Source: Candidatus Bathyarchaeia archaeon
Lineage (GTDB): Archaea > Thermoproteota > Bathyarchaeia > Bathyarchaeales > DTEX01
Direction: 5' to 3'
Length of the DNA stretch: 64,000 nucleotides
Assembly (NCBI GenBank): GCA_038867895.1
Contig: JAWBXL010000008.1
Span: 43 to 64,042, forward strand
Shown here: positions 5,292 to 48,661 of the stretch, in pieces
Layout of the letters: each line of letters begins with the position of its first letter
Numbering within the stretch: the first letter of the stretch is position 1
Notes under the pieces: generated by a model
Databases searched by the model: none
The model's input: the letters and a program-made list of their open reading frames with translations, nothing else
Told to the model about the DNA's origin: nothing
Translations under genes and position numbers: made by a program

Positions 5292-5380
5292 CCCCCTTCG
5301 CCAAGAAAAATATTTTACATAACTACAAGTTTATTTTTTGAATTATTAAAAGTGAAATTGCTGCTTGGGATGAAGTTGAA

Positions 5381-6190: not shown

Positions 6191-6343
6191 TCTTAAATTG
6201 AGTGCCTGTCATATAGGCATGCTGCTTCTCATTTCAATTATTGGTAGGCTTATTATACACGTAAAACTCTGTCCTCTTTGCGAGGAAATCAGCAAAAATT
6301 ATATTTAAACTCAACTATATAAAGGAGGAAAGGAGAGTTTGTT

Positions 6344-20034: not shown

Positions 20035-22389
20035 TTGGTTTCTGAAAAAAATATCCGAGTTAAGATTGATGAGCTGAGGAGTAGTGCAGGTCTTTTAAAG
20101 GGCGTTGAGATCTCCATTGGCAAAATAATTGGCGAGGAGTGGCTTGAGGAGACTGGGCCATCACAGTTCCCAAAGATACCCGACTTAAGGGAGTGGGACT
20201 TCAAGCTCCTGCAGCGCTATAAGCCCTTCTATATGCCATTCTGCGACCTCTGCTGCCTCTGCACATTCGGGAAATGCGATTTAACGGGGGATAAGCGCGG
20301 CGCATGTGGAATAAATATGTCAGCCCAGCAGTCACGCATAGTTCTCTTAGCATGCTGTATAGGCGCCTCTACACACGCGTCTCATGCTAGGCATCTGCTT
20401 GAGCACTTAATAGAGAAGTATGGACGCGACCACCCAATAGACGTCGGCGGCTTAAATGTTGAGGTGGAGGCGCCAATAACACGCTTAGTATGTGGTGTTA
20501 GACCCAGAACCCTCGGCGATCTAGAGGAAGTTCTAAACTACCTTGAGCAGGAAATAGTTAGGTTGTTAGCGGCCACACATACTGGCCAAGAGTCAAGCAA
20601 TATAGACTTCGAGTCTAAAGTATTTCACGCTGGGATGATAGACCATGTCGCGCTTGAGGTGGCCGATATAGCACAGATCTCAGCGCTCGGTTTTCCGAAG
20701 GCGGATCCAGAAGCGCCCCTGGTTGACATAGGTTTGGGTGTCGTTGACTCGACGAAGCCAGTCATAATGGTTGTGGGCCACAATGTTCCACCAGCAGCAG
20801 CCATAGTAGACTACTTGGTTGAGAATGGATTATATGGTGGCATTGAGGTTGTAGGCTTATGCTGTACAGCACATGATCTTACACGATATAACCCTAAGGC
20901 GAAGATTATTGGGCCAATATCATGGCAGCTTAGGTTTATTAGGAGCGGTGTAGCCGACGTCATAATTGTTGATGAGCAGTGCATTAGGACCGATACGCTC
21001 CTCGAGGCCCAGAAGGTTAAGGCTCCAGTTATAGCGACAAGCGATGTGAACTGCGCTGGGCTGCCAGATAGGACAAAAGATAGCGTTGAAAAGATTGTTG
21101 AGGACTTGGTTCTAAATGGGCAGCCGGGCGCATTGATCCTAGATCCGGAGAAGGCTGCTGAGGTCGCTGTTAAGACAGCTCTCTTAATCGCGTCTAAGAG
21201 GATGAAGCTTAAGGCTCTCCCAGATGTAAGCGACATAATTGAGGGCGCAAAGAAATGCCGTAAATGTGATGACTGTAGAAGAGCCTGTCCAAACGATTTG
21301 CCGGTGAGAGATGCCCTTGCGAAGGCGTTGGAGGGCAACCTAAATGCTCTTGCAGATCTCTATGAGGCATGCATTGGTTGTGCCAGGTGCGAGAGCGCAT
21401 GCCCAGTAGATCTTCCACTCCACAGCTTCATAGTTAAGGCTGCTGAGAAGAGGATAAAAGAGGAGAAGTATAAGGTGCGCGCGGGTAGGGGTGCGATACA
21501 GGATGTTGAGATTAGACAAGTGGGCAGCCCAATAGTTCTGGGCGAGATACCTGGCGTTGTGGCCTTCGTCGGATGCGCTAATTATCCTAATGGTGGAACC
21601 GAGGTTGCCGAGATGGCAGTTGAGTTCGCTAAGAGGCGCTATATTATCGTGGCGAGCGGCTGCGCAGCCATGTCCATAGGAATGTATAGGGACGAGGAGG
21701 GCAAAACACCATACGAGGCCTTCTCAGGAGCCTTTGATGCCGGAGGAATAGTTAATGTTGGCTCATGCGTCTCAAACTCACATATTGCCGGAGCAGCAAT
21801 AAAGATAGCCAACATATTTGCTAAGCGTAAGCTCCGCGCCAATTATGAGGAGATAGCAGATTATATACTTAATAGGGTCGGCGCCGTCGGCGTAGCCTGG
21901 GGCGCCATGTCGCAGAAGGCTGCTTCCATAGCCAGCGGCTTCTGGAGGCTCGGCGTCCCAGTTATTGTTGGGCCCCATGGGCTTAAGTATAGGCGTATGC
22001 TCTTAGGCAGGAAGGATAAGCCTGAGGATTGGTACGTCTATGATGCTAGGACTGGAGAGAAAGTTTATGTTGGCCCAGCTCCGGAACACCTGTTCTATGC
22101 CGCTGAGAGTAAGGAGGAAGCTATGGTTATGATAGCGAAGCTATGCATGAGACCAAACGACACTACTAAGGGTAGAGCGATAAAGCTTTCAAATTATATT
22201 GATCTCCATAAGCGCTTCTTTGGAACAATGCCGGATGACGTACACCTCTTCGTCCGCACATTGGCCGATGTTCCGCTGACGATGCGCGAGGAGGTCATAA
22301 AGGTTCTTGAGGAAAAGGGCTGGAAAGAGAATGTTATACCAGATCCAACGCTCCTACCGAGACTAGTGAGGAAAAAGGCTGGTGAGTGA
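20035..22389 (+). CDS. cdhA: acetyl-CoA decarbonylase/synthase complex subunit alpha (CODH catalytic subunit)
   Basis: N-terminal Cys-rich motif ([16 protein letters not shown]...RGACGI) and an internal two-cluster ferredoxin insert ([24 protein letters not shown]) typical of archaeal CdhA. 784 aa. Confidence 0.95.
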
Positions 22390-22939
22390 TATGGCCGCGA
22401 GAGCCGAGTCCTGGCAGACAGCTGAGATACCAGGCCCAAAGAAGGCCATGACTATAACTACTCCACAAATAGTTACAGCGTTAGTTAAGCGTTCAAAGAA
22501 CCCGGTTCTCATTGTTGGCGCAATGGCCCCAAAGATAAGGCTTAGTGGTGGCGATTTAATAGACTATGCTATCCGGATCGCTGAGGCGGCCGGAATGCCA
22601 ATCGTGTCCTCGCCGGGCATTTTTAAGGAGTTTATTGATAGGGGCTTTAAGAGGGTCTCCAACATGCCAGCTGTTGATATAGCAAATAGGCTTACAGACC
22701 CTAAATGGGCTGGGCTTGAGGGTAGGGGGCAGCACGACCTAGCCATCTTTATGGGCTTCAGGTACTACGTTTGCTGGCTAATCCTATCAGGCCTAAAGCA
22801 CTACTCCCAAAACCTCAAGACAATATCTCTAGAAATGTATTATCAGCCGCATGCATTATGGTCATTTCCAAACATCTCAAAAGAGGAGTGGGAGAAGAAC
22901 CTTGACGCCATTATTAAAAGTTTAAGAGAGGGAAAATAG
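22382..22939 (+). CDS. cdhB: acetyl-CoA decarbonylase/synthase complex subunit epsilon
   Basis: A protein of about 180 aa immediately after and overlapping the cdhA stop, with the size and position expected of CdhB. The start may instead be ATG 22391. Confidence 0.85.
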
Positions 22940-22974
22940 TCTTTTAATAGAAAGGTTGAAGGATGTGAGATAAT

Positions 22975-24384
22975 ATGTCAATGTTTGCTGATATTCCGGT
23001 TGGCGTCGGCGAGGTGTATTCTGGCGAGAGGATAAGGTGGCAGGACACTCAAGTGGAATTTGGTGGGTTAAGGGTTCAATATAAATTTGAGCTCGTTAAA
23101 GTTCGTAAAATGGATGAAGTTGAGGATGAAAAGATAACCATAATTGGTCCGGACATAAAGGATCTTGAGCCCCAGAAGTCTTATCCACTTGGAATATTTA
23201 TTGAGGTTGCAGGAAGACAGATTGAGGAGGAGCTTGAGGGAGTTATAGAGCGGAGAATACATGAGTACACGAACTACATTGAGGGCATGATGCACCTAAA
23301 CCAGAGATACGATATATGGATAAGACTCGGCAAAAGATCCTTTGAGAAGGGCTTAAACTCATTCCACATTGTCGGAAAAGTTTATCAAAGATTATTTAAG
23401 AGCGAGCTCCCAATAATCGAGAAGATACAAATAACCTTCATAACCGATCCAGAAAAAGTCAAGGAAATGTATGATTACGCGCTCAAGGAGTATGAGAAGA
23501 GGGATGCTAGGGCCAGGGGCCTAAAGGATGAGGAGGTAGACGCATTCTATGGGTGCACGCTATGTCAGTCCTTTGCTCCAACGCACGTCTGCGTAATAAC
23601 CCCACAGAGATACTCTAACTGCGGCGCAATAAGCTGGTTTGATGCAAGAGCTTCGGCAAGAATTGATCCTAAAGGGCCAGTATTTAGGATTGAGAAAGGC
23701 GAGTGCATTGATTCGATAAAAGGCGAGTATACTGGAGTAAACGATGTTGTTAAAATGAAATCTGGCGGAGAAATACAGCGCGTCTGGCTATATGCCGCCT
23801 TTGGACACCCGCACACCTCTTGCGGATGCTTTGAGGGGATAGCCTTCTATATCCCAGAGGTTGACGGCTTCGGAATAGTCCATAGGGGCTTCACCGAGAA
23901 CACCCCTATAGGCATATCATTCTCGAAGCTGGCAGATTCTACTGCTGGTGGTAGGCAGATCGATGGTTTCCATGGAATATCAATCGAGTATATGCGTTCA
24001 CCAAAGTTCCTACAGGCTGATGGCGGCTGGGAGAGGGTTGTCTGGATTCCCTCAACCGTTTTAGAGAAGGTTAAGGATTTCGTTCCAAAGCACCTTGTGG
24101 ATAAAATAGCGACCGAGAAAGACGCAAAGACTGTGGAGGAGCTTAAGAGCTTCCTTGTAGCCAAGGGCCACCCGATAGTTAAGAGGTGGGAGGAGAAGGC
24201 TAAGGTGGAGGCTGCGGCCAAACCTGTTGAGGAGAAGGCTGCCCTGGCTGTTGCCGCTCCAGAGACTGTTGCGGAGATCGCGGCTCCAGTAAGTGTTGGA
24301 GCCATTGGAGGGTTCAAAATAATACTCAAGAATGCTAAGATTAGAGCGGAGAAAGTTAAGATAATTAGGGCGAAGGAGAAGTGA
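22975..24384 (+). CDS. cdhC: acetyl-CoA decarbonylase/synthase complex subunit beta (acetyl-CoA synthase, A-cluster)
   Basis: A-cluster ligand motifs CTLCQSFAPTHVCVITPQRYSNCG and HTSCGCFE (Cys-Gly-Cys). Confidence 0.95.
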   Translation: MSMFADIPVGVGEVYSGERIRWQDTQVEFGGLRVQYKFELVKVRKMDEVEDEKITIIGPDIKDLEPQKSYPLGIFIEVAGRQIEEELEGVIERRIHEYTNYIEGMMHLNQRYDIWIRLGKRSFEKGLNSFHIVGKVYQRLFKSELPIIEKIQITFITDPEKVKEMYDYALKEYEKRDARARGLKDEEVDAFYGCTLCQSFAPTHVCVITPQRYSNCGAISWFDARASARIDPKGPVFRIEKGECIDSIKGEYTGVNDVVKMKSGGEIQRVWLYAAFGHPHTSCGCFEGIAFYIPEVDGFGIVHRGFTENTPIGISFSKLADSTAGGRQIDGFHGISIEYMRSPKFLQADGGWERVVWIPSTVLEKVKDFVPKHLVDKIATEKDAKTVEELKSFLVAKGHPIVKRWEEKAKVEAAAKPVEEKAALAVAAPETVAEIAAPVSVGAIGGFKIILKNAKIRAEKVKIIRAKEK

Positions 24385-24390
24385 AGGGAA

Positions 24391-25623
24391 ATGGCTAGTA
24401 AAGAGAAGAGGGATGCTGAGGAAGGAGCCCTTATAAAGCTCGGCCCAAAGCTCCTAGATCTTCTGAGACAGTTTGGTGAGATTGAGTTAGAGAATGTTGA
24501 GATCGAGGCTGAGGAGCTGGAGATATGGATACCAGCAGTTACAGCTGTCGCTCCGCCACCCGTGGCCCCGCCAAAGATGGTCCCGGCGAAGCCAGTAGAA
24601 ATATTAAGGGCGGAGTTTAAGCCTCCAATCCAAACTTATTCTGGAAAGATAACCGAGGTTAAGCTCGGGGCGACAAGAGGTGAGGGCGGCACTAGAGAAA
24701 AAGTTATAAAGGTTGGCGGGGAAGCTACCCCCACATTCTATCTTTTTGAGGAGGTTCCTCTAAACCCGCCAGTAATATCGGCCGACATATTTGACATGGA
24801 GGTTCCGCTTCCAAAGGCTATAAAGATGCATGTCCAGGAGGTTATCGGTGACCCAGCTGCGTGGGCTAAGCTCGCCGTAGATAAATTTGGCGCGGATCTA
24901 ATCACAGTCCACTTGGTTAGCACAGATCCTCTTAGAAAGGATGCCCCGCCGAGCGATGCCGCGAAGATAATTGAGAGGATTCTACAGGCGGTTAAGGTTC
25001 CAATAATTGTTGGAGGCTGCGGCGACCCAAAGAAAGATACGGAAGTCTTTAAGAGGGTCGCTGAGGTGGCGCATGGGGAGCGTGTCATGCTAAGCTCCGT
25101 AACCCTAGACATGGCTGAGGCAGGTCTATTAGAAGAGGTTGCTAAGGCCGCTAGGGAGCATGGCCACGTTGTGCTGGCATTTACGGCCATGGACTTAAAC
25201 CAGGCTAAAGAGCTCAACAGAAAACTCTACGATTATCTGCCAAGGGAGAGCATAATCATGGATTTAACCACGGCAGCCCTGGGATACGGACTAGAGTACT
25301 CGTTCACGGTGCATGAGAGGGCTAGACTCGCAGCCCTAGCTGGTGACCAAGAACTTCAGCACCCAACATCCTCAGGAACAACAAATGCCTGGGCCGCTAG
25401 AGAGGCTTGGCTGAAGCTCGGCCCGGAGTGGGAGCCTAGGGAGCTGAGGGGACCACTATGGGAGACAGTTACGGCAATAACCCTCCTCTTGGCTGGCGTA
25501 GATATCTTCATGATGATGCATCCGGCGGCGATACGTACTGTTAAGGAGACTATCAGTAACCTCTATAAGCGTGGCAGAGCTAAGCCTGAGGGCGTGGCTG
25601 ACTGGATTTCCATTAAAATATAG
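24391..25623 (+). CDS. cdhD: acetyl-CoA decarbonylase/synthase complex subunit delta (corrinoid/FeS protein small subunit)
   Basis: Position after cdhC, a Pro/Ala-rich linker and a TIM-barrel-like C-terminal region, as in CdhD/AcsD. Confidence 0.88.
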   Translation: MASKEKRDAEEGALIKLGPKLLDLLRQFGEIELENVEIEAEELEIWIPAVTAVAPPPVAPPKMVPAKPVEILRAEFKPPIQTYSGKITEVKLGATRGEGGTREKVIKVGGEATPTFYLFEEVPLNPPVISADIFDMEVPLPKAIKMHVQEVIGDPAAWAKLAVDKFGADLITVHLVSTDPLRKDAPPSDAAKIIERILQAVKVPIIVGGCGDPKKDTEVFKRVAEVAHGERVMLSSVTLDMAEAGLLEEVAKAAREHGHVVLAFTAMDLNQAKELNRKLYDYLPRESIIMDLTTAALGYGLEYSFTVHERARLAALAGDQELQHPTSSGTTNAWAAREAWLKLGPEWEPRELRGPLWETVTAITLLLAGVDIFMMMHPAAIRTVKETISNLYKRGRAKPEGVADWISIKI

Positions 25624-25640
25624 TTTGGAGGTGGGGGTAC

Positions 25641-27077
25641 TTGCCCACAGGTGAAGTAAAGAAGGGTGTGAGAGAGTTAAGTCCGTTAGACGCCTATATG
25701 CTCCTGCCGAGAACGAATTGTGGGAAGTGCGGTGAGAGCAATTGTATGGCATTCGCAACGAAGCTCGTTAATAGGGAGGTTACGCTGGAGTTATGTAAGC
25801 CGCTTATAGAGGAGGAGAAGTATAAAGCCCAGTATTCTAAGCTGAAAGAGCTTCTCGCTCCGCCGATTAAAGAGGTTGTTATTGGTGTTGGCGAAACCGC
25901 TGTTAAAGTTGGCGGTAAGCTCGTAATGTATAGGCATGAGCTCACGTACACGAATCCACCGCCCATAGCGATAGATGTGATGGATGAGATGCCTGAAGAC
26001 GAACTGCTTAAGCGTATAGAAAAGATTAATAGTCTTGCATATACTTATATTGGCAAGACAATTAAGCTCGATATGGTGGCAGTTAGGTCAACGTCAAATG
26101 ACCCCGCGAAGTTTAAGTCAGCCGTTCAGAAGGTTATGTCTGCAACAAAGCTTCCATTAATATTATGTACATTTAACCCGGATGTTATGAAGGCTGCCCT
26201 TGAGGTTGCATATGATCGGAGACCGTTAATATATGCCGCTACTGAGCGCAATTGGAGGCAGATGGCTGATTTAGCATTAATGTATAATTGTCCATTAGCG
26301 GTCTTCGCCCCAAACGATATAGCCCTACTAAAGTCGCTTACAAATACTCTCATAGAATATGGCATTGAGGATCTCCTCCTCGATCCGGGGACATTCCCAG
26401 AGGACGGTATTGCGGACACAATCACAAACTTTACAATGATTAGGAGGAGCGCATGTAAGTTTGGCGATAACCTTTTAGGTTTCCCGCTTATCGGTGTACC
26501 CATGACTGTATGGACCTTAAAAGATGTTCCGAAAGATGTTCTACAGTGGATGGAAGCATGCTTAGCGGGAATGCTGATTGTTAGATACGCTGATCTGCTT
26601 ATATTACATAGTCTTGAAGGATGGTCCCTTCTACCAACCCTAATCTTGAGGGCTAACATATACACTGATCCAAGGAAGCCGGTGGCCGTTGAGCCTGGAC
26701 TGAAGGTACTTGGCAGCCCAGATGAAAACTCACCAGTCCTAATAACATCAAACTATGCATTAACGTTCTTTACGGTTCAGTCTGATATAGAATCTGCCGG
26801 GATAAGCTGCTACCTCATAGTTGTTGATAGCGAAGGATACGCCGTTGAAAGTGCTGTTGCAGGGAGAAAAATGACAGCACAGACAATTGCAGATGCGCTT
26901 AAATCCTCAGGCATAGAAGAAAAAGTTAAGCACAAATACCTTATAATTCCTGGGCTAGCGGCTAGACTAAGTGGCGAGATAGAGGAGCTAGCAGGCTGGA
27001 AAGTCCTTGTTGGACCAAGAGATTCATCTGGCATACAGGCATTCTTAAAGGAGAATTGGCCCCCAAAAACTCCATGA
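25641..27077 (+). CDS. cdhE: acetyl-CoA decarbonylase/synthase complex subunit gamma (corrinoid/FeS protein large subunit)
   Basis: N-terminal [4Fe-4S] motif LPRTNCGKCGESNCMAFA followed by TIM-barrel and corrinoid-binding regions, as in CdhE/AcsC. Confidence 0.9.
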   Translation: MPTGEVKKGVRELSPLDAYMLLPRTNCGKCGESNCMAFATKLVNREVTLELCKPLIEEEKYKAQYSKLKELLAPPIKEVVIGVGETAVKVGGKLVMYRHELTYTNPPPIAIDVMDEMPEDELLKRIEKINSLAYTYIGKTIKLDMVAVRSTSNDPAKFKSAVQKVMSATKLPLILCTFNPDVMKAALEVAYDRRPLIYAATERNWRQMADLALMYNCPLAVFAPNDIALLKSLTNTLIEYGIEDLLLDPGTFPEDGIADTITNFTMIRRSACKFGDNLLGFPLIGVPMTVWTLKDVPKDVLQWMEACLAGMLIVRYADLLILHSLEGWSLLPTLILRANIYTDPRKPVAVEPGLKVLGSPDENSPVLITSNYALTFFTVQSDIESAGISCYLIVVDSEGYAVESAVAGRKMTAQTIADALKSSGIEEKVKHKYLIIPGLAARLSGEIEELAGWKVLVGPRDSSGIQAFLKENWPPKTP

Positions 27078-27121
27078 TTTTTTTCTCTTAGTCTTCTAAT
27101 TTTTAGTTAAGGGGATCTAGA

Positions 27122-27883
27122 TTGAAGACTCTTGTCTCGATGGGCAGGGGTGGAACCGGGAAAACAAGTTTTGTAGCCCTAACCACAAAATATTTTATAG
27201 AGAAGAAAGTATCTCCAATGCTCCTAATAGACGCAGATCCGGACCAGAGTCTAGCGGACGTTTTGGGAGTGGATTTCGAGGGGGAGGGTAAAAAGACTAT
27301 TTCTGAGCTTCTTGTCGAGACCTTTATTGAGGGCGGGGGCACGCTTGTCGGGGTCCCTCCATCAGAGAGGATGGAGAGTAGAATTTGGGAGGAAGGTCTC
27401 TACGAAGGGGAATATTTTGACTTGATCGTTATAGGGCCAAAGTGGGTTGAGGGCTGCTACTGCCTCCCAAATGAAGCCCTGAGGGCGGCTCTAGGGAACC
27501 TAATAAAGAATTACAGGTATATTATTATTGATACTCCGGCCGGTCTAGAGCACCTTAATAGGCGGATAACCACGAGGGTTAATGATATTTTCGATTTAAT
27601 AGATCCATCATTGAAATCCTTTGAGCATGTGGCCAGAGCATACAGGATAGCAAAGGAGGTTAACATAAAATTTGATAACTTTTATGTTATTGGGGGTTTC
27701 AGGTTTCCGGAAAAGCTTGGAAATAAAGTTGAGAGTAGACTAGGCTTAAGGTTTCTTGGGAAAATAGCCTTTGATGAAAATGTTGAGGATTTTGTCCTAT
27801 CTGGGAGATCTCTCCTTGAAATCCCGGAGGATTCGCCGGCATACCGTTCAGTTAAGGAAATATTGGCCAAAGCTGGATATTAG
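27122..27883 (+). CDS. CooC/AcsF-family Ni-insertion ATPase, divergent paralog 1
   Basis: MinD/ParA-like P-loop in a deviant form, GRGGTGKT (signature Lys replaced by Arg). CxC metal motif EGCYC and switch region IIIDTPAGLEH. Confidence 0.75.
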   Translation: MKTLVSMGRGGTGKTSFVALTTKYFIEKKVSPMLLIDADPDQSLADVLGVDFEGEGKKTISELLVETFIEGGGTLVGVPPSERMESRIWEEGLYEGEYFDLIVIGPKWVEGCYCLPNEALRAALGNLIKNYRYIIIDTPAGLEHLNRRITTRVNDIFDLIDPSLKSFEHVARAYRIAKEVNIKFDNFYVIGGFRFPEKLGNKVESRLGLRFLGKIAFDENVEDFVLSGRSLLEIPEDSPAYRSVKEILAKAGY

Positions 27884-27917
27884 GTAGAAGATAAATAAAA
27901 GGATTGAGAGCGCGGAA

Positions 27918-28343
27918 ATGAGTGAGCCTAAGAGTATAGATATTTTCCAGTTGCTTTTAGAGAGTTCAAGTAAAAAGGCGCGTAGATCAGAGATCCTATC
28001 TTCCCTTGGAATAAAAGAGTATTTCATTGATGGGGATATAGAAATAGACAAGAAGACCTGTAGGGGGGTGGACTGCCAGCTTTGCATCAAAGTCTGCCCA
28101 ACAAACGCCCTATACTGGAGCTACGGCCAAGTAAACATAACCAAGGAGCTATGTATACACTGCACGGCCTGCGTCCTTATCTGCATGGTTGACAACTGTA
28201 TTAAGGTTACTAGAAGGAGATCCAATGACAGGGTTGAGACTTTCAGCAACCCTAAGCAAGTGTTTAGGCTTCTGCAATCAATTGGCTCTGAGAAGCGTCT
28301 TGATATAGTGAACCGAGTTTTCCAGCTTAGAAGATCCATGTGA
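27918..28343 (+). CDS. 2x[4Fe-4S] ferredoxin-domain protein with N-terminal HTH-like extension
   Basis: Cys motifs CRGVDCQLCIKVCP and CIHCTACVLIC. The N-terminal ~40 aa (IDIFQLLLESSSKKARRSEILSSLGI) resemble a winged-helix recognition unit. Confidence 0.7.
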   Translation: MSEPKSIDIFQLLLESSSKKARRSEILSSLGIKEYFIDGDIEIDKKTCRGVDCQLCIKVCPTNALYWSYGQVNITKELCIHCTACVLICMVDNCIKVTRRRSNDRVETFSNPKQVFRLLQSIGSEKRLDIVNRVFQLRRSM

Positions 28344-28352
28344 GGGGTCTTA

Positions 28353-29144
28353 TTGAAGATAGTTGTTGCTGGTAAAGGTGGTGTTGGAAAAACTCTTGTC
28401 GCCGGAACCTTAGCTCGAATCTACGCTCGTATGGGCTTCAATGTCCTGGCAGTAGATGCTGATCCAGCCATGAACCTTGCTTACACTCTGGGAATACCTC
28501 AGGACGTATCGTCAAAGATAGTTCCAATAGCCGAGAACATCCCCCTAATAGAGGAGAGAACTGGAGCCAAGCCTGGATCCGCATTCGGAATACTCTTTAG
28601 TCTGACACCGAGGGTGGATGACATAGCCGAGAGGTATGGTGTAGTTGGGCCGGATGGTGTTAGGCTACTTGTTATGGGCACAATAAAGTCTGGTGGATCC
28701 GGGTGCGCATGCCCAGCCAACTCGCTTCTGAGCGCATTAATTAGGCATATAACCTTGAGAAGAGGCGATATAGTCATCATGGACGCTGAGGCTGGTTTAG
28801 AGCATCTTGGCAGGGCCACAGCCAAGGGTTTTAACATGATGATATGTATTGTGGAGCCAAGCGCCCCGTCAATAGAGACGGCCATAAAAATCAGGAAGTT
28901 AGCTAGCGAGATAAATATCAGAGAGGTTATCTTTGTCGGAAACAAGATCTCCGATTCTGAAGAGGAAAAATATATTAGAGGAGAGCTAGGTAAATCCTCT
29001 CTAAGCCTATTCCATACAATCCCTTTTGACCAAAATATTATTATGGCTGGGAGGGCCCGCGCCGCGCCAATAGATTATTCACCGTCGTCGCCAGCAATAT
29101 TAGCCATAAAGGATCTCGCTGAGAATCTCATAACTAAAATATAA
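28353..29144 (+). CDS. cooC: CooC/AcsF-family Ni-insertion ATPase, paralog 2
   Basis: GKGGVGKT deviant Walker A, CxC motif GSGCACP and DAEAGLEH switch. Confidence 0.85.
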   Translation: MKIVVAGKGGVGKTLVAGTLARIYARMGFNVLAVDADPAMNLAYTLGIPQDVSSKIVPIAENIPLIEERTGAKPGSAFGILFSLTPRVDDIAERYGVVGPDGVRLLVMGTIKSGGSGCACPANSLLSALIRHITLRRGDIVIMDAEAGLEHLGRATAKGFNMMICIVEPSAPSIETAIKIRKLASEINIREVIFVGNKISDSEEEKYIRGELGKSSLSLFHTIPFDQNIIMAGRARAAPIDYSPSSPAILAIKDLAENLITKI

Positions 29145-29239
29145 GGAAATCGCTCTTTTTATCAAAGTTTCAATTGATTTTATTATGAGTTAAATATATA
29201 CCTTAAGTATGCGTTATAATTACTAGGTGAAACTGTTTT

Positions 29240-31909
29240 TTGGGCATAGAGGGATTAGACAAAATATTTAATCCCAAGAGAATCGCCGTTATCGGCGCAA
29301 GTAATAGAGAGGATTCTGTGGGATATAAAATATTTAATAACCTTATTGGTTTTAAGGGCTTCATTTATCCAGTTAACCCTTTTAGCCAGAGCATACAGGG
29401 GGTTACTGCCTATCCGAGCGTCAAAAAGATTCCATGGCGCATAGATTTAGCGGTGATTGCTACACCAGCCCATACTGTCCCAGAGATTGTGGAGGAGTGC
29501 GGTGAGGCTGGGATAACCGGGGTTATAATAGTTTCATCAGGCTTCAGGGAGACTGATCTAAGGGGAAAAGCCTTTGAAGAGGAGATTTTGAAGATAAAAT
29601 CTAGGTTCGGCTTGAGGATAATAGGGCCGAACTGTCTGGGGATTATACGCCCGAGCATAAAGATGAACGCGACATTCGCTAATAAGGTGGTCAGGCCGGG
29701 TAACATGGCTTTTATATCTCAGAGCGGCGCTATCTGCGCATCTGTATTAGATTGGGCTGAAGTAGCCAATGTTGGATTCAGCGCGGTTGTATCGCTGGGC
29801 AATACGATAGATGTGGACTTCGCTGATCTCATAGACTACTTTGGAATGGATCCAGAAACTAGAAGCATAATACTCTTCATTGAATTCTTAAGTGATCCTG
29901 GAAAGTTTATGAGCGCTGCGAGAAGATTTGCTGCGACAAAGCCGATAATAGCAATTAAGGCTGGTAGAACAAGCGAGGGTATAAGGGCGGCAGTATCGCA
30001 TACTGGTGCAATTGTGAGTGATGATGCACTTTATGACGCGCTTTTCTCAAGGGCTGGTGTAGTCCGTGTTGAAACCATCTCGGATCTATTCTCCTGCTCA
30101 GAGATCCTAGCAACCCAGCCATTACCTAAAAGCCCAAACTTAGTGATAATAACTAATGCTGGGGGCGCCGGGGTTATGGCCGCTGACGCCCTAATCTTAA
30201 GAGGAGGGGATCTAGCAAGACTGAGCGAAAAAACGGTTGAAGAGTTAGAGAGGGTTCTACCATACTATTGGAGTAGATCCAATCCAATAGATATATGTGA
30301 AGATGCGACGGCTGAAAGATTTAGAAAGGCTGCTGAAATATGCCTGAAAGATCCGGGCGCCGGGGGCTTCCTGGTGCTCTATACCCCAATTGGTGAGGCA
30401 GATCCCACGGAGACTGCTAAGGCTATAATCGAGGTTTTTAAGGGATCTGGGAAGCCGGTTCTCACATGCTGGCTTGGTGAAAAGGAGGTTCGTGAAGCTA
30501 GGGAAATATTTAGAAAAAATAGGATTCCAACATATCCAACTCCAGAGGAAGCCGTCGCAGCCTTCATGCACATGTACCAGTATGCCAGAAACATCGAGAT
30601 ACTCTACGAGGTTCCCGAGGAGATAAAATTGAGCCCACCGAGCGATAAAATGCGCCTAAAGAATATAATTAAGCGCGCCGTAGATGAGGGAAGATTTACA
30701 CTCACAGAGTTTGAATCAAAGGAGTTCCTCAAAGAGTATGGCATACAGGTTTCCGAGACATATGTTGCGAAAAACCCGGCAGAGGCTGCGGAAATTGCCT
30801 CCAAGATAGGCTTTCCAGTGGCTATGAAGGTTCTCTCACCAGATATTACACATAAGATGGATGTCGGCGGCGTCATCCTAAACATTTATAGTGAAGCACA
30901 GGTGAAGAACTGCTTCCTGCAGATAATAGGGAATGTTAAATCTCAATATCCAAACGCCAAAATTTATGGCGTTACTGTGCAGCCAATGCATCCTAGAGAC
31001 TATGAAGTTATTATTGGGTCGAAAAGAGATCCGGTTTTCGGATCATTCATAATTTTTGGGAGTGGTGGAGTTAGCGTTGATCTCTTTAGGGATATTGCCA
31101 TAGGCTTCCCACCATTAAATCAGACCCTGGCAAGAAGAATGATTGAGAGGACGAAAGTCTATAAAGCTTTTTCTGGAGGATTTAAAGGCTTATCTTTGGC
31201 TAACCTCAGATCAATCGAGGAGGCCCTTGTAAGGTTCTCGCAGCTAGTAATAGATTTTCCAGAAATAGATGAGGTGGATATTAACCCGCTTGCTGTCTCC
31301 TCTAATGGCATTATAGCCTTAGATGCCCGGATAATAGTTGATGTAGAGAAGGTGAGGAGTGAGCCTAAACCATATGAGCATATAATCATAAGACCTTACC
31401 CAACCAAGTATATATCTGAGCGCACACTGCGTGATGAAAGCAAAGTTACGCTTAGACCAGCTAGACCAGAAGATGAACCACTACTCATAGAATTATTCAG
31501 AGCCTTCTCGGCAGAGACCATGAGACTAAGATTTTTCCGGGTGATGAAGGAGATAGATCATTATGTGACAGCCAGATACTGTAATATTGATTATAGCCGT
31601 GAAATAACAATTGTTGCTGAAACAGAAATAAATGGAAAAAAGCGTCTGATAGGTATGGCAAATCTTATCATCCAACCGGACGGAAACAACAGCGAGATAT
31701 CAGTTGTAGTGGGGGATCCGTGGCAGAATAAAGGTTTAGGATCAATAATGATTGACCACCTTATAGAAGTTGGGAGAGACATGGGTCAAAAGAAACTTTT
31801 CGGAGAGTTTCTTGCAGAGAACAAAAAGGTTTTTCACATTTTACAGAAGAAGGGTTTTGAGATAAGGAGGATTGATAAGGAAACATGTATCGCCACGCTT
31901 AACCTCTAA
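29240..31909 (+). CDS. Pat-like bifunctional protein: ADP-forming acyl-CoA synthetase (fused alpha+beta) with C-terminal GNAT acetyltransferase
   Basis: 889 aa. CoA-binding N-terminus (IAVIGASNRE), phosphohistidine loop SHTGA and ATP-grasp region. The C-terminal GNAT carries LRPARPEDE...IDYSREI...WQNKGLG. Confidence 0.85.
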   Translation: MGIEGLDKIFNPKRIAVIGASNREDSVGYKIFNNLIGFKGFIYPVNPFSQSIQGVTAYPSVKKIPWRIDLAVIATPAHTVPEIVEECGEAGITGVIIVSSGFRETDLRGKAFEEEILKIKSRFGLRIIGPNCLGIIRPSIKMNATFANKVVRPGNMAFISQSGAICASVLDWAEVANVGFSAVVSLGNTIDVDFADLIDYFGMDPETRSIILFIEFLSDPGKFMSAARRFAATKPIIAIKAGRTSEGIRAAVSHTGAIVSDDALYDALFSRAGVVRVETISDLFSCSEILATQPLPKSPNLVIITNAGGAGVMAADALILRGGDLARLSEKTVEELERVLPYYWSRSNPIDICEDATAERFRKAAEICLKDPGAGGFLVLYTPIGEADPTETAKAIIEVFKGSGKPVLTCWLGEKEVREAREIFRKNRIPTYPTPEEAVAAFMHMYQYARNIEILYEVPEEIKLSPPSDKMRLKNIIKRAVDEGRFTLTEFESKEFLKEYGIQVSETYVAKNPAEAAEIASKIGFPVAMKVLSPDITHKMDVGGVILNIYSEAQVKNCFLQIIGNVKSQYPNAKIYGVTVQPMHPRDYEVIIGSKRDPVFGSFIIFGSGGVSVDLFRDIAIGFPPLNQTLARRMIERTKVYKAFSGGFKGLSLANLRSIEEALVRFSQLVIDFPEIDEVDINPLAVSSNGIIALDARIIVDVEKVRSEPKPYEHIIIRPYPTKYISERTLRDESKVTLRPARPEDEPLLIELFRAFSAETMRLRFFRVMKEIDHYVTARYCNIDYSREITIVAETEINGKKRLIGMANLIIQPDGNNSEISVVVGDPWQNKGLGSIMIDHLIEVGRDMGQKKLFGEFLAENKKVFHILQKKGFEIRRIDKETCIATLNL

Positions 31910-32681
31910 TTATTGTTGGGATAATTTTCTCTTCAACTATCTTTTTGACGTCTAATAGAGCATCACCAGATTTTAATAGTTTCCTTCTGAGGCATGAAAC
32001 ATAGAGCTCCCTATCAAATCTCACCAGACCATCTATGTTTAAGCCCACGCCAGCAGTCTCCTCAATAATAAGATCTTTTACATCATCCGTGACTTTATTA
32101 GCTATGACCCAAAATATCTTCCCTAAATTCTTGGCTATCTTCTTTAGTGTTAATGCCAGTTCTATGGATTCGGCCGTGGGATCTATGACCACAAGTATTC
32201 CATCTGAGACTTCCTCAATTCTTCTGCCAATATGCTCTACGCCAGCATCAGTATCAATCAATACAACCTCATTTTTCTCTAGACTTAGGTTTCCAAGCAG
32301 AATCCTCGTTAATATATTGAATGGGCATGCGCACCCCTCACCGTACTCCCTAACTTTACCTATCACTATTAATCTCACTCCCTCTCTTGAGGTTGCTATA
32401 TATTCGCTGGGGAGTAAGCTCAATTTTATGCCTTCCCTAGCCGTGGATAAAGCCCTAATGATATCCGGCTCCATCTTCTCGAAATCTTCCTCCTCCCTCT
32501 TCCCACCGACATATTCGACCAGAGGCTTTGGCGGGTTAACCCCAAGAAAGACCGGTAAAAGAGAATTTGATTCGTCTGAATCAACTATATATACCTTAAA
32601 TTTTTCTAGGAGAGACCTGGCAATTAGAATTGATAGTACTGTTTTACCAGACCCACCTTTACCACAAACCATAATCTTCAT
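31899..32681 (-). CDS. cooC: CooC/AcsF-family Ni-insertion ATPase, paralog 3
   Basis: GKGGSGKT, CxC motif GEGCACP and DTDAGVEH. Converges on the Pat-like gene and overlaps it by 11 nt. Confidence 0.85.
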   Translation of the reverse strand: MKIMVCGKGGSGKTVLSILIARSLLEKFKVYIVDSDESNSLLPVFLGVNPPKPLVEYVGGKREEEDFEKMEPDIIRALSTAREGIKLSLLPSEYIATSREGVRLIVIGKVREYGEGCACPFNILTRILLGNLSLEKNEVVLIDTDAGVEHIGRRIEEVSDGILVVIDPTAESIELALTLKKIAKNLGKIFWVIANKVTDDVKDLIIEETAGVGLNIDGLVRFDRELYVSCLRRKLLKSGDALLDVKKIVEEKIIPTIIRG

Positions 32682-43422: not shown

Positions 43423-44502
43423 TTAAAGTTTCTCGCCGATAATTTTCTCTAGATTCACATACTTCTTAACTAGGTTTATGGCGGCGTTTATTCTCCTAAC
43501 ATCTTTGGGCTTTATTCTTCCAATCACTCTTTGTATGTATTGGAGGGTTGTATAAGTGTCGTATGGAACAAGTAGTAGTGGGATTTTAAGATGGTCTGCT
43601 TTTGGAAAGACTTTAACGCTTGGATAAAGATTTCCAGTTAATATTATTGCTGATACTCCCATCTCAAGAGCCGTTAAAATTATGTCTGTCCGGTCGCCGC
43701 CCGTTATCACAACTTCATTAAGAGCTCTACGAAAGTATTTTGCCGCGCTTTCAGGCGTCATGGCTCCAACAAGAATTTCCTCAACAACATTATCCAGCCC
43801 ATCTTTTCCTGCTAGAATCCTCCCGCCGATAAACTCGCATATCTCCCTGACTGTTGGAGCCTTTAATTCTCTGTCCTCCGGGATCACCCCTAGAACATTA
43901 ATATTCTGCTTTTCAATGAAGGGTTTGATCATACCTCTAAATCGCTCAATCCTGTCTTCCGGAACCCTGTTAAATATTACACCTAAGAGATTCGCCCTCC
44001 ATCTTGCGCATAGATCTTGAGACTGAAGCACGTTATCAATGGCAAAATCATTTTCCGCCATCTCAACCAATATTATATCTGCGCCTAGCTCCCTTGCAAT
44101 TCTTGGAGCTGAGCACCCTATAAAGGAGCCAGCCATGAGATTATGGGGGCTCTCAAGCAACACGACATCAGAGTTCTCTGAGATCTTTCTATAAGCACTT
44201 TTTATTTTCTCCATAAATAATTCAAGGTTATCCTCAACAAAATCCTCAAGAAATTCATCACCTTTAAGAAGAATTGGGCATATAATATCCTCAGCGTAAC
44301 CCAGCTTTAATATTGATTTCATTATTTCAACGTCTTCGTCATGTAGTTCTTTTCCAGGGGTGATTGATGAGCTAATTCCTATAGGTTTAAAGTATCCTAC
44401 CTTTAACCCCCTCTCCATGAATGTTAATGCTAAGGCTATGGTTATGGCGCTTTTACCAGAAAGCTCCTCGGTGGAGACTATATAAATTGCTTTTCTAGCC
44501 AA
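43423..44502 (-). CDS. Pta N-terminal-like regulatory protein (BioD-like P-loop + DRTGG domain) lacking the phosphotransacetylase catalytic domain
   Basis: N-terminus IYIVSTEELSGKSAITIALAL...GYFKPIG, and a DRTGG-type segment VITGGDRTDIILTALEMGVSAIILTGN. It lies 35 nt downstream of the ACD gene on the same strand. Confidence 0.7.
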   Translation of the reverse strand: MARKAIYIVSTEELSGKSAITIALALTFMERGLKVGYFKPIGISSSITPGKELHDEDVEIMKSILKLGYAEDIICPILLKGDEFLEDFVEDNLELFMEKIKSAYRKISENSDVVLLESPHNLMAGSFIGCSAPRIARELGADIILVEMAENDFAIDNVLQSQDLCARWRANLLGVIFNRVPEDRIERFRGMIKPFIEKQNINVLGVIPEDRELKAPTVREICEFIGGRILAGKDGLDNVVEEILVGAMTPESAAKYFRRALNEVVITGGDRTDIILTALEMGVSAIILTGNLYPSVKVFPKADHLKIPLLLVPYDTYTTLQYIQRVIGRIKPKDVRRINAAINLVKKYVNLEKIIGEKL

Positions 44503-44536: not shown

Positions 44537-46636
44537 TTATATTCTTATAATTATTCTCACATCCACTCCAAGACATCCTTCACCGCTCTCATAAACAAAC
44601 AATGGATTAATCTCCATCTCGGCTATATCCTCGAACTGCATCATTACCTCCGATACCCTAAGCATAACATCTATAATGGAGTTTATGTCTGAGGGTGGTT
44701 CTCCCCTAACTCCTCTAAGAAGAGCGTATGTTCTTGTCTCCTCGATCATTCTAGCAGCCTCTGCCCTAGTTAATGGACAGAGGCTATAGGAAACGTCCCT
44801 TAAGAAGTCAACATATATTCCGCCCAGGCCAAACATCATCAGCGGGCCGAACTGCGGGTCTCTGACGGCGCCCACAATAACCTCCTTCCCCCGTGGCGCC
44901 ATCTTCTGTATTAGCACGCCAGAGACCTTTGCGCGCGGAATAACTGCCCTCACCCTCCTAAGAAGATACTCATAATTTTCCTCCACCTCAGCCCTACTTT
45001 TAACTCCGAGGATCACCCCGCCAATATCTGTTTTATGTATGATGTCTGGCGAGATTACCTTCATCGCTACTGGATAACCCAATTCATCAGCTAGCCTGCC
45101 AGCCTCCTCCCTATTTTTAGCAACTACAGCCTTTGGCATAGGTATCCCAGCTGCATCAGCAACAGTTATAGCTTCGTTTATTGTGAGAGCTGACCGGCCC
45201 TCTGATCTTACGCGCTGAATAACCTCCAAAATTTTATCAGCATTTATTTCCACCTTTGAAATTTTCTCTTCAATAGGGGAGTTAAGTATTAAAGTGTACT
45301 CGTACATTGATTTGAGGACGTAAGCCGCTTGCTCCGGAAATGCGTAATTTGGAATTCTACTCCCCTTAAGTGTCTTAATGACCGTTGAGCTCTCCTCAAA
45401 CCCCATGAAGGAGGCGAGAATAGGTTTGCTTGAAATTCTTCCAATCTCAGCCAGGGCCTCGGCAACCTTTTCTGAGGGGGTTACCGCCTGTGGAGTTAAA
45501 ATAACTATTATTCCATCAACGTTACCGCTCTTTAAGCCTGCCTCAATTGCAATCTTATAGCGTTTTTCATCCGCATCACCCAAAACATCTATTGGATTGC
45601 TTAAACTAGCTTGTGGAGGCATATTTTTACGCAGATCTTCTATTATATCATGCTCAAGAAGTGGCAGCTCTAGATTAGATTTTTCGCATGCATCCGCGGC
45701 TAGTATGCCCGGTCCCCCACCATTCGTTACTATCAATATTCTTCTTCCTTTAAGTGGCGGTTGGGAGCCGAAAGCTAATACAAGGTTAAATAGTTCCTCA
45801 AGAGTATTAACCCTTATTACTCCAGCCTTCTTAAAGGCTGCTGAGAAAGCCGCGTCTGAGCCTGCTAAAGAGCCAGTATGAGATGAAACGGCCCTCATGC
45901 CAGCGCTAGTTGTCCCAGCTTTCACTGCGACTATGGGCTTCTTTCTAGAAACCCTCTTAGCAACCTCTATGAAGCGCTCCCCATTCTTAACGCCCTCAAT
46001 ATAAAGCCCGATAACCTTCGTGTCCTCGTCCTCGCCCAAAGCCTCTATAAAGTCGGCAGCATTCAAGTCAGCCTCATTACCCAAACTTATAAACTTTGTG
46101 AAGCCAATCCCGCTCCCAATAGCCCAATTTAGTATTGCGCTTCCAAGAGCCCCACTTTGAGAAACAAATGCTATATTGCCAGGTAAAGGCATTGCGGGGG
46201 CGAAAGAAGCATTTACGCGGTTTTGAACGCTTATTATTCCGAGACAGTTCGGACCTTGCATCCGCATACCGTATTTCCGGCATATGCTGACTAGCTCGCG
46301 CTCTAATTGTGCTCCTTCTCTGCCAGTCTCTCCAAAACCAGCGGAGATTATGACCACGCCCTTAATTCCCTTAGCGCCGCAGTCTTCTAGAACTGATGGC
46401 ACGGCCCTAGCTGGAACAACAATCACTGCTAGATCAACTTCACTTGGGGTGTCTCTAACACTTTTATAGCATTTTAGTCCCAGTATCTCGTCGGCATTAG
46501 GATTTATTGGATAAAGAGTTCCGCTAAAGCCTCCCTCAATAAGGTTTTTAAGTACCCTATGTCCAACCTTAGTTGGTTCTCTACTTGCCCCAACAACTGC
46601 GATGGATTTTGGGTTAAAGAAAGCGTCTAGTCCCAT
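44537..46636 (-). CDS. acd: acetate--CoA ligase (ADP-forming), fused alpha/beta subunits
   Basis: CoA-binding IAVVGASREP, phosphohistidine loop SSHTGSLAGSD and a C-terminal ATP-grasp. 699 aa. Confidence 0.9.
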   Translation of the reverse strand: MGLDAFFNPKSIAVVGASREPTKVGHRVLKNLIEGGFSGTLYPINPNADEILGLKCYKSVRDTPSEVDLAVIVVPARAVPSVLEDCGAKGIKGVVIISAGFGETGREGAQLERELVSICRKYGMRMQGPNCLGIISVQNRVNASFAPAMPLPGNIAFVSQSGALGSAILNWAIGSGIGFTKFISLGNEADLNAADFIEALGEDEDTKVIGLYIEGVKNGERFIEVAKRVSRKKPIVAVKAGTTSAGMRAVSSHTGSLAGSDAAFSAAFKKAGVIRVNTLEELFNLVLAFGSQPPLKGRRILIVTNGGGPGILAADACEKSNLELPLLEHDIIEDLRKNMPPQASLSNPIDVLGDADEKRYKIAIEAGLKSGNVDGIIVILTPQAVTPSEKVAEALAEIGRISSKPILASFMGFEESSTVIKTLKGSRIPNYAFPEQAAYVLKSMYEYTLILNSPIEEKISKVEINADKILEVIQRVRSEGRSALTINEAITVADAAGIPMPKAVVAKNREEAGRLADELGYPVAMKVISPDIIHKTDIGGVILGVKSRAEVEENYEYLLRRVRAVIPRAKVSGVLIQKMAPRGKEVIVGAVRDPQFGPLMMFGLGGIYVDFLRDVSYSLCPLTRAEAARMIEETRTYALLRGVRGEPPSDINSIIDVMLRVSEVMMQFEDIAEMEINPLFVYESGEGCLGVDVRIIIRI

Positions 46637-46777: not shown

Positions 46778-48661
46778 ATGCTTAAGGAGGAGAGATTGCG
46801 CGATAGACCATACGACGATAAGAAGATGAGTTTGAAGGAGGCTCTAGACCGCATAAAACCTGGGGACCATATTTTTATAGGATCGGCTTGCGGTGAACCG
46901 CAATATTTAGTTAGGGGTTTAGTTGAGATGGCGGATCACTTAGCTAATAATGAGATACTTCATGTGCATACTCTTGGAGTGGCGCCATACACGAAGCCTA
47001 GGTATTCAGAGAGGTTCAGGATGAACGCATTTTTTGTTGGAATCAATACTCGTAGGGCAGTAGCTGAAGGTAGAGCTGATTATACACCAACCTTCTTATC
47101 TGACCTGCCACACTTAATAAGGAATGGAGCTATCCAAATCGATGTTGCGCTCATACAAGTTACGCCTCCGGATGAACATGGATTCTGTAGCCTGGGCGTT
47201 TCAGTGGATGTTACAAAGGTTGCCGCTGAGAGATCAAAGCTAGTTATCGCTCAGGTCAATAGGAAGATGCCGAGGGTTTTGGGCGATAGCTTCATACACG
47301 TGAAGGATATTGATATAATTGTTGAGCATGATGAGCCAATACTCGAGGCACCGTCCTCTGAACCAGACATAGTTTCAGAGCGTATCGCAAAGTATGTCTC
47401 TGACCTAGTTGAGAATGAGTCAACGCTACAGATAGGCATAGGTAGTATACCAGACGCGATCCTAAATTACCTGGTAGATAAAAGGGATCTTGGGATACAC
47501 ACCGAGCTTCTCACCGAAGGTGTTGTGAGCCTTGTTGAGGAGGGCGTGATAACATGCGCTAAAAAGACGATAAATAGAGGAAAGATAATCGCGTCATTTG
47601 CGATGGGAACCCGCAAATTATATGACTTCATAGATAATAATCCTATGGTTGAGTTTTACCCGTCAGACTATGTAAATAATCCATTCATAATTGCTCAGCA
47701 TGACAAGATGGTTGCGATAAATCAGGCGCTCGAAGTAGACTTAACTGGTCAGGTATGCTCCGATTCACTTGGCTATAAATTTTATAGTGGGTTGGGTGGG
47801 CAGGCTGATTTTATGAGGGGTGCAAGACTATCAAGGGGTGGAAAGGCGATAACAGTCTTACCTTCGACGGCGAAGGATGGAAGAATCTCGCGTATAAAGG
47901 ACTTTCTGACAAAGGGGGCAGGCGTCGTGTTAACTAGGGGTGATGTTGATTATGTTGTTACAGAGTATGGTGTAGCCTACCTTAGGGGTAAGACGATTAG
48001 GGAGAGGGCTCTAGCGTTAATAAGCATAGCTCATCCAAAGTTTAGGAATAGGCTTCTTGAATGGGCGAAAAAATATAATTACGTTCCAAAGGAGATTATG
48101 CCCTTCCCTGAAGTAGAGTATCCGGAGGAGCTAAAGCGGTATATCACATTGAAGGATGGGTCAAGAGTGCTGCTTAGGCCTATAAAGCCTTCTGATGCGA
48201 CCTTAAAGCAGCATCTCTTTTATGCCCTCTCAAAAGAGAGCGTTAAGAGAAGATTTCTGGGATCGTTAGATCTCATGCCCCTTAAACGAATATGGCCATA
48301 CGTTGTAATAGACTATGCTAATGAGATGAGCATTGTTGGCACGGTGATGGAGAATGATAATGAATTTATGGTAGCTATAGGAAGCTATTCACGTATACCC
48401 GGAACAGAAAAGGCAGAGGTTTCATTAATCGTGAGGGATGATTGGCAGAATAAGGGTTTGGGAACAGCCCTATTCAACTATCTAGCGGAGATAGCGAAAT
48501 CCCGTGGAATAAAGATTTTCACCGGATGGATTCTCGTGGAGAATGCTAAAATGATGCACATACTTAAGAAATCTGGGTATCCAATGAAATATAGAGTTGA
48601 CGGAAACCTATTTTATGTTGAGTTGGACCTCACAAAAACCCCAGTAAAGAAAAATGCTTGA
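46778..48661 (+). CDS. acetyl-CoA hydrolase/CoA-transferase (4-hydroxybutyrate CoA-transferase-like) fused to a C-terminal Pat-type GNAT
   Basis: The first ~430 aa show the CoA-transferase family I layout (GDHIFIGSACGEP..., HTELLTEG). The C-terminal ~180 aa are a GNAT with LRPIKPSD...IDYANEM...DDWQNKGLG. Confidence 0.85.
   Translation: MLKEERLRDRPYDDKKMSLKEALDRIKPGDHIFIGSACGEPQYLVRGLVEMADHLANNEILHVHTLGVAPYTKPRYSERFRMNAFFVGINTRRAVAEGRADYTPTFLSDLPHLIRNGAIQIDVALIQVTPPDEHGFCSLGVSVDVTKVAAERSKLVIAQVNRKMPRVLGDSFIHVKDIDIIVEHDEPILEAPSSEPDIVSERIAKYVSDLVENESTLQIGIGSIPDAILNYLVDKRDLGIHTELLTEGVVSLVEEGVITCAKKTINRGKIIASFAMGTRKLYDFIDNNPMVEFYPSDYVNNPFIIAQHDKMVAINQALEVDLTGQVCSDSLGYKFYSGLGGQADFMRGARLSRGGKAITVLPSTAKDGRISRIKDFLTKGAGVVLTRGDVDYVVTEYGVAYLRGKTIRERALALISIAHPKFRNRLLEWAKKYNYVPKEIMPFPEVEYPEELKRYITLKDGSRVLLRPIKPSDATLKQHLFYALSKESVKRRFLGSLDLMPLKRIWPYVVIDYANEMSIVGTVMENDNEFMVAIGSYSRIPGTEKAEVSLIVRDDWQNKGLGTALFNYLAEIAKSRGIKIFTGWILVENAKMMHILKKSGYPMKYRVDGNLFYVELDLTKTPVKKNA

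Follow-up and report, generated by a model that had tools for sequence, protein, structure and literature searches.

Does the synthetase-like region of a Pat-type protein acetyltransferase still work as an enzyme, or does it serve to sense acetyl-CoA for the acetyltransferase domain behind it? This question is raised by a gene at positions 29240-31909 of a 64,000-nucleotide stretch of contig JAWBXL010000008.1 (hereafter the window; GenBank assembly GCA_038867895.1) from a Candidatus Bathyarchaeia archaeon. Its 889-residue product joins a region resembling an ADP-forming acetyl-CoA synthetase (ACD) to a C-terminal GNAT domain, and is referred to here as the ACD-GNAT protein. We favor the view, with a probability of roughly 0.55, that it is a lysine acetyltransferase of the Pat type (type I GNAT), in which the N-terminal 700 residues still work as an ADP-forming acetyl-CoA synthetase and are not a dead sensor.

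The type I enzymes Pat and PatZ are homotetramers that acetylate the A10 lysine of AMP-forming acetyl-CoA synthetase (Acs), a modification reversed by a sirtuin, and PatZ also acetylates itself. For ACDs, phosphoryl transfer by means of a histidine loop, power helices, and an ATP-grasp domain is established chemistry. The inactivity of the ACD domain of Pat has been ascribed to the loss of the catalytic histidine (His254-alpha of Ca. Korarchaeum ACD1, ckcACD1) (PMC12184503; PMC3195501), and reviews extend this inactivity to all type I and type II enzymes (PMC8556138). Acetyl-CoA bound in the N-terminal domain allosterically activates the GNAT of PatZ, which is the sole mechanism experimentally shown for this architecture (PMC12184503; PMC3195501). 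Archaeal GNATs were described in a 2025 paper as typically single-domain (PMC12607858), and the characterized Sulfolobus Pat is a small stand-alone GNAT (PMC3195501; PDB 3f8k, 160 residues), as a first-pass annotation of the window had stated.

Architecture and catalytic residues of the two halves

The full Pat architecture attributed to this protein at first pass, that is, a region of ~700 residues resembling NDP-forming acyl-CoA synthetases and a C-terminal GNAT on a single chain, is borne out by its Pfam domains and by comparison with solved structures (Table 1). Among proteins of known structure, the top match is E. coli PatZ (9IT0/9ISQ), with residues 4-877 aligned at E 1e-159. An AlphaFold monomer model (predicted local distance difference test score, pLDDT, 81; predicted template modeling score, pTM, 0.75) superposes on liganded PatZ over its whole length with a template modeling (TM) score of 0.75, and on ACDs with TM 0.80-0.85 on the target. 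The model's GNAT matches that of S. lividans PatA with TM 0.85; this closest GNAT has been solved in complex with the C-terminal domain of Acs (4u5y/4nxy). The low-confidence stretches of the model are the swinging loop (residues 249-255) and residues 764-771 of the GNAT, the latter beside a stretch that aligns with the mobile "gating motif" of PatZ. Homologues of 888-895 residues align with the protein from residue 1-6 through to its end, indicating that the TTG start at 29240 is correct and the gene model sound; a mis-called start or two fused genes was considered and rejected on this collinearity.

Table 1. Features of the ACD-GNAT gene and its surroundings, in positions of the window.
Feature	Position	Strand	Basis
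cdhABCDE, CooC-like gene, ferredoxin, second CooC-like gene, upstream of ACD-GNAT	20035..29144	+	Pfam, synteny
AT-rich spacer (95 nt) between second CooC-like gene and ACD-GNAT	29145..29239	+	sequence read by eye
ACD-GNAT gene, type I Pat-like protein, 889 aa, TTG start	29240..31909	+	open reading frame call, Pfam, PatZ match, fold match
CoA-binding subdomain 1 (CoA_binding_2), residues 13-136; SSGFRE at 99-104	29276..29647	+	Pfam, alignment
Subdomain 2 (Succ_CoA_lig), residues 153-290: power helix 1 FISQSGA, Glu215, swinging loop	29696..30109	+	Pfam, alignment
SHTGA loop, residues 253-257; His254 at the phosphohistidine position	29996..30010	+	alignment
Subdomain 5 (Ligase_CoA_2), residues 302-454: power helix 2 ITNAGGAGV	30143..30601	+	Pfam, alignment
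ATP-grasp (ATP-grasp_5), residues 480-700: His538, DINP at 680-683	30677..31339	+	Pfam, alignment
Second His, His538, in SPDITHKMD	30851-30853	+	
Pat-type GNAT, residues 736-874	31445..31861	+	Pfam, structure and sequence match
GNAT catalytic Glu819	31694-31696	+	
GNAT P-loop QNKGLG	31724-31741	+	
Convergent CbiA/MinD-family (CooC-like) ATPase, 260 aa	31899..32681	-	open reading frame call, Pfam
AAA_26+DRTGG (Pta-N-terminal-like) protein, after plain ACD	43423-44502	-	Pfam
Plain fused ACD, divergent from the gene at 46778-48661	44537-46636	-	Pfam
Acetyl-CoA hydrolase/transferase fused to Pat-type GNAT	46778-48661	+	GNAT 34% identical to ACD-GNAT residues 717-880

Whether the synthetase-like half could still catalyze was examined by residue-by-residue alignments against PatZ, ckcACD1, P. 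horikoshii PH0766, and N. maritimus Nmar_0206. The CoA site reads SSGFRE (SAPASQ in PatZ), power helix 1 FISQSGA (FISQSAA in PatZ), and power helix 2 NAGGAGV (NGAAPAA in PatZ); the swinging loop is of full length and carries SHTGA, whereas that of PatZ is ~4 residues shorter and has no histidine; and the Mg site is DINP, in which PatZ has a histidine in place of the asparagine (DIHP). Glu215 and the ATP-grasp histidine, here His538, are kept in both proteins. His254 corresponds to His254-alpha of ckcACD1 and to His256 of Nmar_0206, and SHTGA, SQSGA, NAGGAGV, and His538 all align with their counterparts in ckcACD1 and Nmar_0206 (H256/H535), so that the two histidines and both power helices of an ACD are in place. 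As had been noticed at first pass, SHTGA also aligns with SSHTGSLAG of the plain ACD encoded at 44537-46636. The N-terminal half is matched more strongly by true ACDs (2csu, E 6e-111; ckcACD1, E 1e-104) than by PatZ (E 6e-93). With His254 and every checked ACD motif present, the protein shares the type I architecture without sharing the "inactive regulatory domain" that is held to go with it.

The acetyltransferase half is intact too. Glu819 and QNKGLG align with the AEF (E809) and GLG of PatZ, the catalytic glutamate and P-loop of a type I GNAT, and Glu819, Gln829, Gly832, and Gly834 are invariant in 61 homologues. A degenerate GNAT was rejected on the invariance of Glu819 and the P-loop; with the ACD motifs and GNAT residues all kept, neither half looks degenerate.

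Three kinds of known protein place these observations in context. E. coli PatZ (YfiQ/Pka) and S. enterica Pat have the same domain order and nearly the same length (886 vs 889 residues), PatZ being 34% identical end to end, and they share the catalytic glutamate and P-loop of the GNAT, Glu215, and the ATP-grasp histidine; unlike the archaeal protein, PatZ has an ACD part that is an inactive acetyl-CoA sensor, whereas the corresponding "regulatory" domain of the archaeal protein may be an enzyme. The ACDs (Ca. Korarchaeum ACD1, 4XYL; P. horikoshii PH0766/PH1788; the fused N. maritimus Nmar_0206, 8WZU) are 37-42% identical to it, with TM 0.80-0.90 per module, and have the same two histidines, power helices, Glu215, and ATP-grasp site, but lack the additional 190-residue linker plus Pat-type GNAT; the subdomain order, 1-2-5-4-3, is that of the fused ACDs. 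Sulfolobus solfataricus Pat (3F8K) and Haloferax Pat1/Pat2 share the GNAT fold and a presumed activity in lysine acetylation, but are single-domain GNATs of ~160 residues; 3f8k matches residues 735-881 only, and weakly (E 2e-6), so that the ACD-GNAT protein, with its 889 residues and five domains, is no stand-alone GNAT. Public records automatically annotate the fused architecture as [quoted passage not shown].

Intact and decayed classes among the relatives

The catalytic histidine is also conserved among relatives. His254 is invariant in all 135 close homologues (>=53% identical), and of the 80 genome loci most similar to this one, 77 have it. No other part of the protein is as conserved as the His-loop subdomain, with a mean identity of 73% vs 59% for the GNAT among the close homologues and of 61% vs 44% among the 80 loci. 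A motif census was taken over 105 ACD-GNAT representatives of 50%-identity clusters. His254 is kept by 77 of these and all six motif sets by 25, proportions that are indicative only, since the sampling favored relatives of the query and SQSGA served as one of the patterns in the genome scan. Representatives with His254 mostly keep His538 as well (65/77, vs 4/28 of those without) along with the GG of power helix 2 (64/77 vs 6/28). The motif losses are thus correlated and define an intact class, to which the protein encoded at 29240-31909 belongs, and a decayed class. PatZ falls into the latter, and its branch is 4-5 times as long as the median. Decay of another kind was seen among ACD-GNAT proteins of ~800-826 residues (P0181, P0195, P0215, P0235, P0242, P0246, P0249, P0250, P0253, and others), in which the middle of the ATP-grasp domain, including SPxIxHK, is missing; some of these retain the His254 loop.

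These patterns bear on the possibility that the ACD-like region is a sensor only, binding acetyl-CoA and perhaps nucleotide or phosphate and activating the GNAT allosterically, with its motifs kept for the shape of the ligand site or for a phosphohistidine switch without net turnover. Such a role is the one demonstrated for PatZ (PMC12184503; PMC3195501), which, though inactive, retains Glu215, the counterpart of His538, and the ATP-grasp fold; it would also agree with the score against the TIGR02717 AcCoA-syn-alpha model, 532.7 bits, which lies below the cut-off of 567.15, the plain ACD in the same window scoring 597.5. The ACD-GNAT protein and its intact relatives, in contrast, keep both power helices, a full-length loop, two histidines, and the Mg-site asparagine over distances at which these elements decay elsewhere, and in other lineages the phosphoryl-shuttling elements are lost jointly, a pattern that a role in binding alone would not demand. 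We therefore consider a pure sensor unlikely, if the most serious of the alternatives. The earlier suggestion that the synthetase part may be catalytically active has gained ground in that, as judged from the alignments, every other checked motif that PatZ lost is kept here as well.

If the N-terminal half is indeed a working ACD, it would interconvert acetyl-CoA, Pi, and ADP with acetate, CoA, and ATP, the phosphoryl group probably passing by way of His254, as phosphohistidine on the swinging loop between the two power helices, and of His538 in the ATP-grasp domain. The C-terminal GNAT would acetylate lysines from acetyl-CoA, with Glu819 as the presumed base and QNKGLG as the P-loop. A site that merely senses in PatZ would thus be catalytic here, and its occupancy could tie protein acetylation to the supply of acetyl-CoA and to ADP, ATP, and Pi, that is, to energy charge.

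Gene neighborhoods and the candidate target

The location of the gene directly after a cdh/CooC-like cluster, and the 11-nucleotide overlap of its 3' end with a convergent third CooC-like open reading frame (31899-32681), were described at first pass and agree with the open reading frame map and Pfam; the position of the overlapping frame is kept within the genus. Three CbiA/MinD-family (CooC-like) ATPases, mutually 26-28% identical, and a ferredoxin of 141 residues with 2x[4Fe-4S] flank the ACD-GNAT gene between 27122 and 32681, again in positions kept within the genus. The order cdhABCDE, CooC-like, ferredoxin, CooC-like, ACD-GNAT, convergent CooC-like, elp3 is preserved in two congeneric genomes and at a 70%-identical locus. 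In another family of the clade that holds this protein (clade A, below), a cluster of two CooC-like genes and cdhABC is found downstream of the gene, 1.5-6 kb away (L098, L024, L099), and at most other relatives' loci there is no cdh gene within 9 kb.

The 95-nucleotide spacer in front of the gene has an oligo-T run right behind the stop of the second CooC-like gene, a TATA-like TTATAA ~22-27 nucleotides upstream of the ACD-GNAT start, and AGGTGA 9 nucleotides upstream of it. Read by eye, it may hold a promoter of its own and a putative Shine-Dalgarno site. A scan for sigma-70 promoters and terminators gave sites no commoner than in shuffled sequence, the sigma-70 model being inapplicable to an archaeon.

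The cdh linkage lends some weight to a reading of the protein as mainly an ACD, that is, an acetate-forming, ATP-yielding enzyme for acetyl-CoA derived from acetyl-CoA decarbonylase/synthase (ACDS), the GNAT of which would acetylate either the enzyme or some small molecule instead of Acs or other proteins. The association with cdh and CooC-like genes occurs in two different arrangements within the clade, the ACD motifs are intact, and self-acetylation has a precedent in PatZ. Against this stand the Pat type of the GNAT, with its closest relative in S. lividans PatA, the presence of a separate plain ACD in the genome, and the company kept by relatives, so that we regard a mainly ACD role as doubtful, and more so than a pure sensor.

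The neighborhoods of these relatives are informative. In 26 of 100 relatives' loci, an AMP-forming Acs or a SIR2 or HDAC-type deacetylase lies within 6 kb. Acs is found upstream and SIR2 directly downstream of the ACD-GNAT gene in Bacteroidota (L055, L065, L073, L075, L079), an HDAC-type gene directly adjoins it in Thermoplasmatota, Nanobdellota, Methanosarcinales, Altiarchaeota, and others, and Acs is divergent from it at one Bathyarchaeia locus of a second clade (clade B). Writer/eraser pairs with an adjoining HDAC-type deacetylase were seen at the archaeal loci L009, L017, L019, L025, L026, L028, and L036. Such neighborhoods argue that the His-retaining members act as protein acetyltransferases within a circuit of writer, eraser, and target, and by analogy with PatZ and Pat the kind of target (Acs) and the writer/eraser logic are likely the same.

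The organism's own genome encodes a bona fide Acs (contig C10, 12344-14191), in which the motif open to acetylation reads PKTRSGKIMRR, together with a single SIR2 and three HDACs, all outside the ACD-GNAT neighborhood. The sole SIR2 gene (contig C22, 8179-8733, reverse strand) lies ~2 kb from a gene for an AMP-binding acyl-CoA synthetase-like protein (4675-6276, forward strand), the A10-like motif of which is IPLTSVGKYDKK. The likeliest target of the GNAT would be the A10 lysine in the AMP-forming Acs that this genome encodes, and the acetyl group would be removed by the genome's sirtuin or HDAC-type deacetylases. Acs could in this way be switched off while the ACD draws on acetyl-CoA from ACDS to form acetate and ATP, and a futile cycle between ACD and Acs would be avoided. 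Elsewhere in the window, the gene at 46778-48661 likewise joins a Pat-type GNAT to an acetyl-CoA-handling enzyme whose chemistry is apparently intact; unlike in the ACD-GNAT protein, the partner is an acetyl-CoA hydrolase/transferase, and the ACD is a separate neighboring gene.

Several points weigh against a protein with two working halves. Kept motifs alone are not proof of turnover, and the AcCoA-syn-alpha score given above falls short of its cut-off. A literature search found no assayed enzyme of the intact class, nor any experimental or comparative paper on that class, on an archaeal type I Pat, or on a Bathyarchaeia ACD-GNAT protein. The motif census is biased, its 150 representatives being those most similar to the query protein, and SQSGA was itself among the search patterns of the genome scan. 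The gene adjoins cdh and CooC-like genes and not Acs or a deacetylase, so that the target is deduced from relatives only, and the presence of a separate plain ACD in the same genome makes the need for an additional ACD activity not obvious.

Distribution, descent, and meaning for the family

The first-pass annotation had treated the protein as a bacterial type of enzyme in an archaeon, implying rarity and raising transfer from bacteria as a possibility to test. Neither idea is supported. The nearest named matches, at 80-85% identity, are Candidatus Bathyarchaeia metagenome-assembled genomes (MAGs), and every named relative at >=53% identity belongs to Bathyarchaeia or Thermoproteota. A full-length match (46-80% identity) is carried by ~35 of 301 sampled Thermoproteota genomes, including three of six of the same family and 17 of 28 of the same order. 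A scan of the genome collection, built on an 11-sequence alignment (A2), gave loci of 44-70% identity, 33 of them archaeal and 46 bacterial. The archaeal loci come from Bathyarchaeia, Thermoplasmatota, Methanoperedenaceae, Methanosarcinales, Nitrososphaerota, Nanobdellota, and Altiarchaeota, and the bacterial ones from Dehalococcoidia, Bacteroidota, Thermodesulfobacteriota, Planctomycetota, Cloacimonadota, Actinomycetota, Campylobacterota, Nitrosomonas, and others. Relatives of 44-55% identity span at least six archaeal and at least 12 bacterial phyla, and nearly all have the histidine; His-retaining forms are thus widespread in both domains.

In two trees, the protein falls into clade A (support 99), which contains Bathyarchaeia only and whose branching tracks genus, family, and order; its sister, clade B, is a second clade of Bathyarchaeia paralogues. 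Two genomes, G216 (L088, L089) and G210 (L097, L098), carry two full-length ACD-GNAT paralogues, one of each clade, and in G210 it is the clade A copy (L098) that adjoins the cdh cluster, whereas the stretch examined around the clade B copy (L097) has no cdh genes. Two loci labeled "Nitrosopumilales" (L014) and "Thermoplasmata" (L058) sit deep inside clade B, which could reflect a binning or labeling error or a recent transfer; some MAG labels, such as these, may be binning errors. Plain ACD representatives gave no clean outgroup in the tree; they are interspersed with the fusions.

A recent import of the gene from bacteria into this archaeon might be entertained because the studied members of the family are bacterial and because archaeal and bacterial sequences are intermixed in the wider tree, with at least 6-7 domain switches among 79 labeled rows. 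The 37 nearest tree neighbors, however, are all archaeal. Dehalococcoidia, Syntrophales, and Sulfurovum nest inside a neighboring, otherwise archaeal clade, and the reverse was not seen. Together with a clade A restricted to Bathyarchaeia, a second Bathyarchaeia paralogue clade, and synteny kept within the genus, this leaves a recent bacterial origin unsupported; we judge it highly improbable, and it was rejected on tree placement and genus-level synteny. The enzyme family is common in archaea and bacteria, and the clade is vertically inherited in archaea. The first-pass annotation had held that placement in a common, vertically inherited archaeal clade of plain ACD function with a degenerate GNAT, or loss of key catalytic residues, would speak against its interpretation; the clade is of that common, vertical kind, but the GNAT is not degenerate, and none of the checked catalytic residues, among them both histidines, the power-helix residues, and Glu215, has been lost in alignment with PatZ and ACDs.

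The same data allow a broader and more tentative proposal, to which we give somewhat less credence than to the activity of this particular protein. The "regulatory domain" of type I Pat may have been a working ACD ancestrally and may still be one in many archaea and bacteria; the fusion would couple substrate-level formation of ATP from acetyl-CoA to the shut-off of AMP-forming Acs through acetylation, as a device against futile cycling, with the GNAT perhaps fed by acetyl-CoA that the enzyme itself makes from acetate and ATP. The Pat of E. coli and Salmonella would then be a decayed pseudoenzyme derivative, and the textbook inactivity of type I and II domains a generalization from one lineage.

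In the literature, Pat's large N-terminal domain is treated as a dead sensor of acetyl-CoA, and archaeal acetyltransferases as single-domain proteins. The gene described here is one of a large class, conserved and as yet unstudied, that extends across many archaeal and bacterial phyla and in which this domain keeps the full catalytic kit of an ACD. The Pat of E. coli and Salmonella, which has been studied, resembles a decayed form of this family. If both halves work, the protein would link protein acetylation directly and enzymatically to the conservation of energy at the acetyl-CoA/acetate node, and would show a sensor domain arising through the decay of an enzyme. There would also be consequences for reconstructing the metabolism of Bathyarchaeia and other uncultured anaerobes, in which such genes could be counted as just "acd" or just "acetyltransferase".

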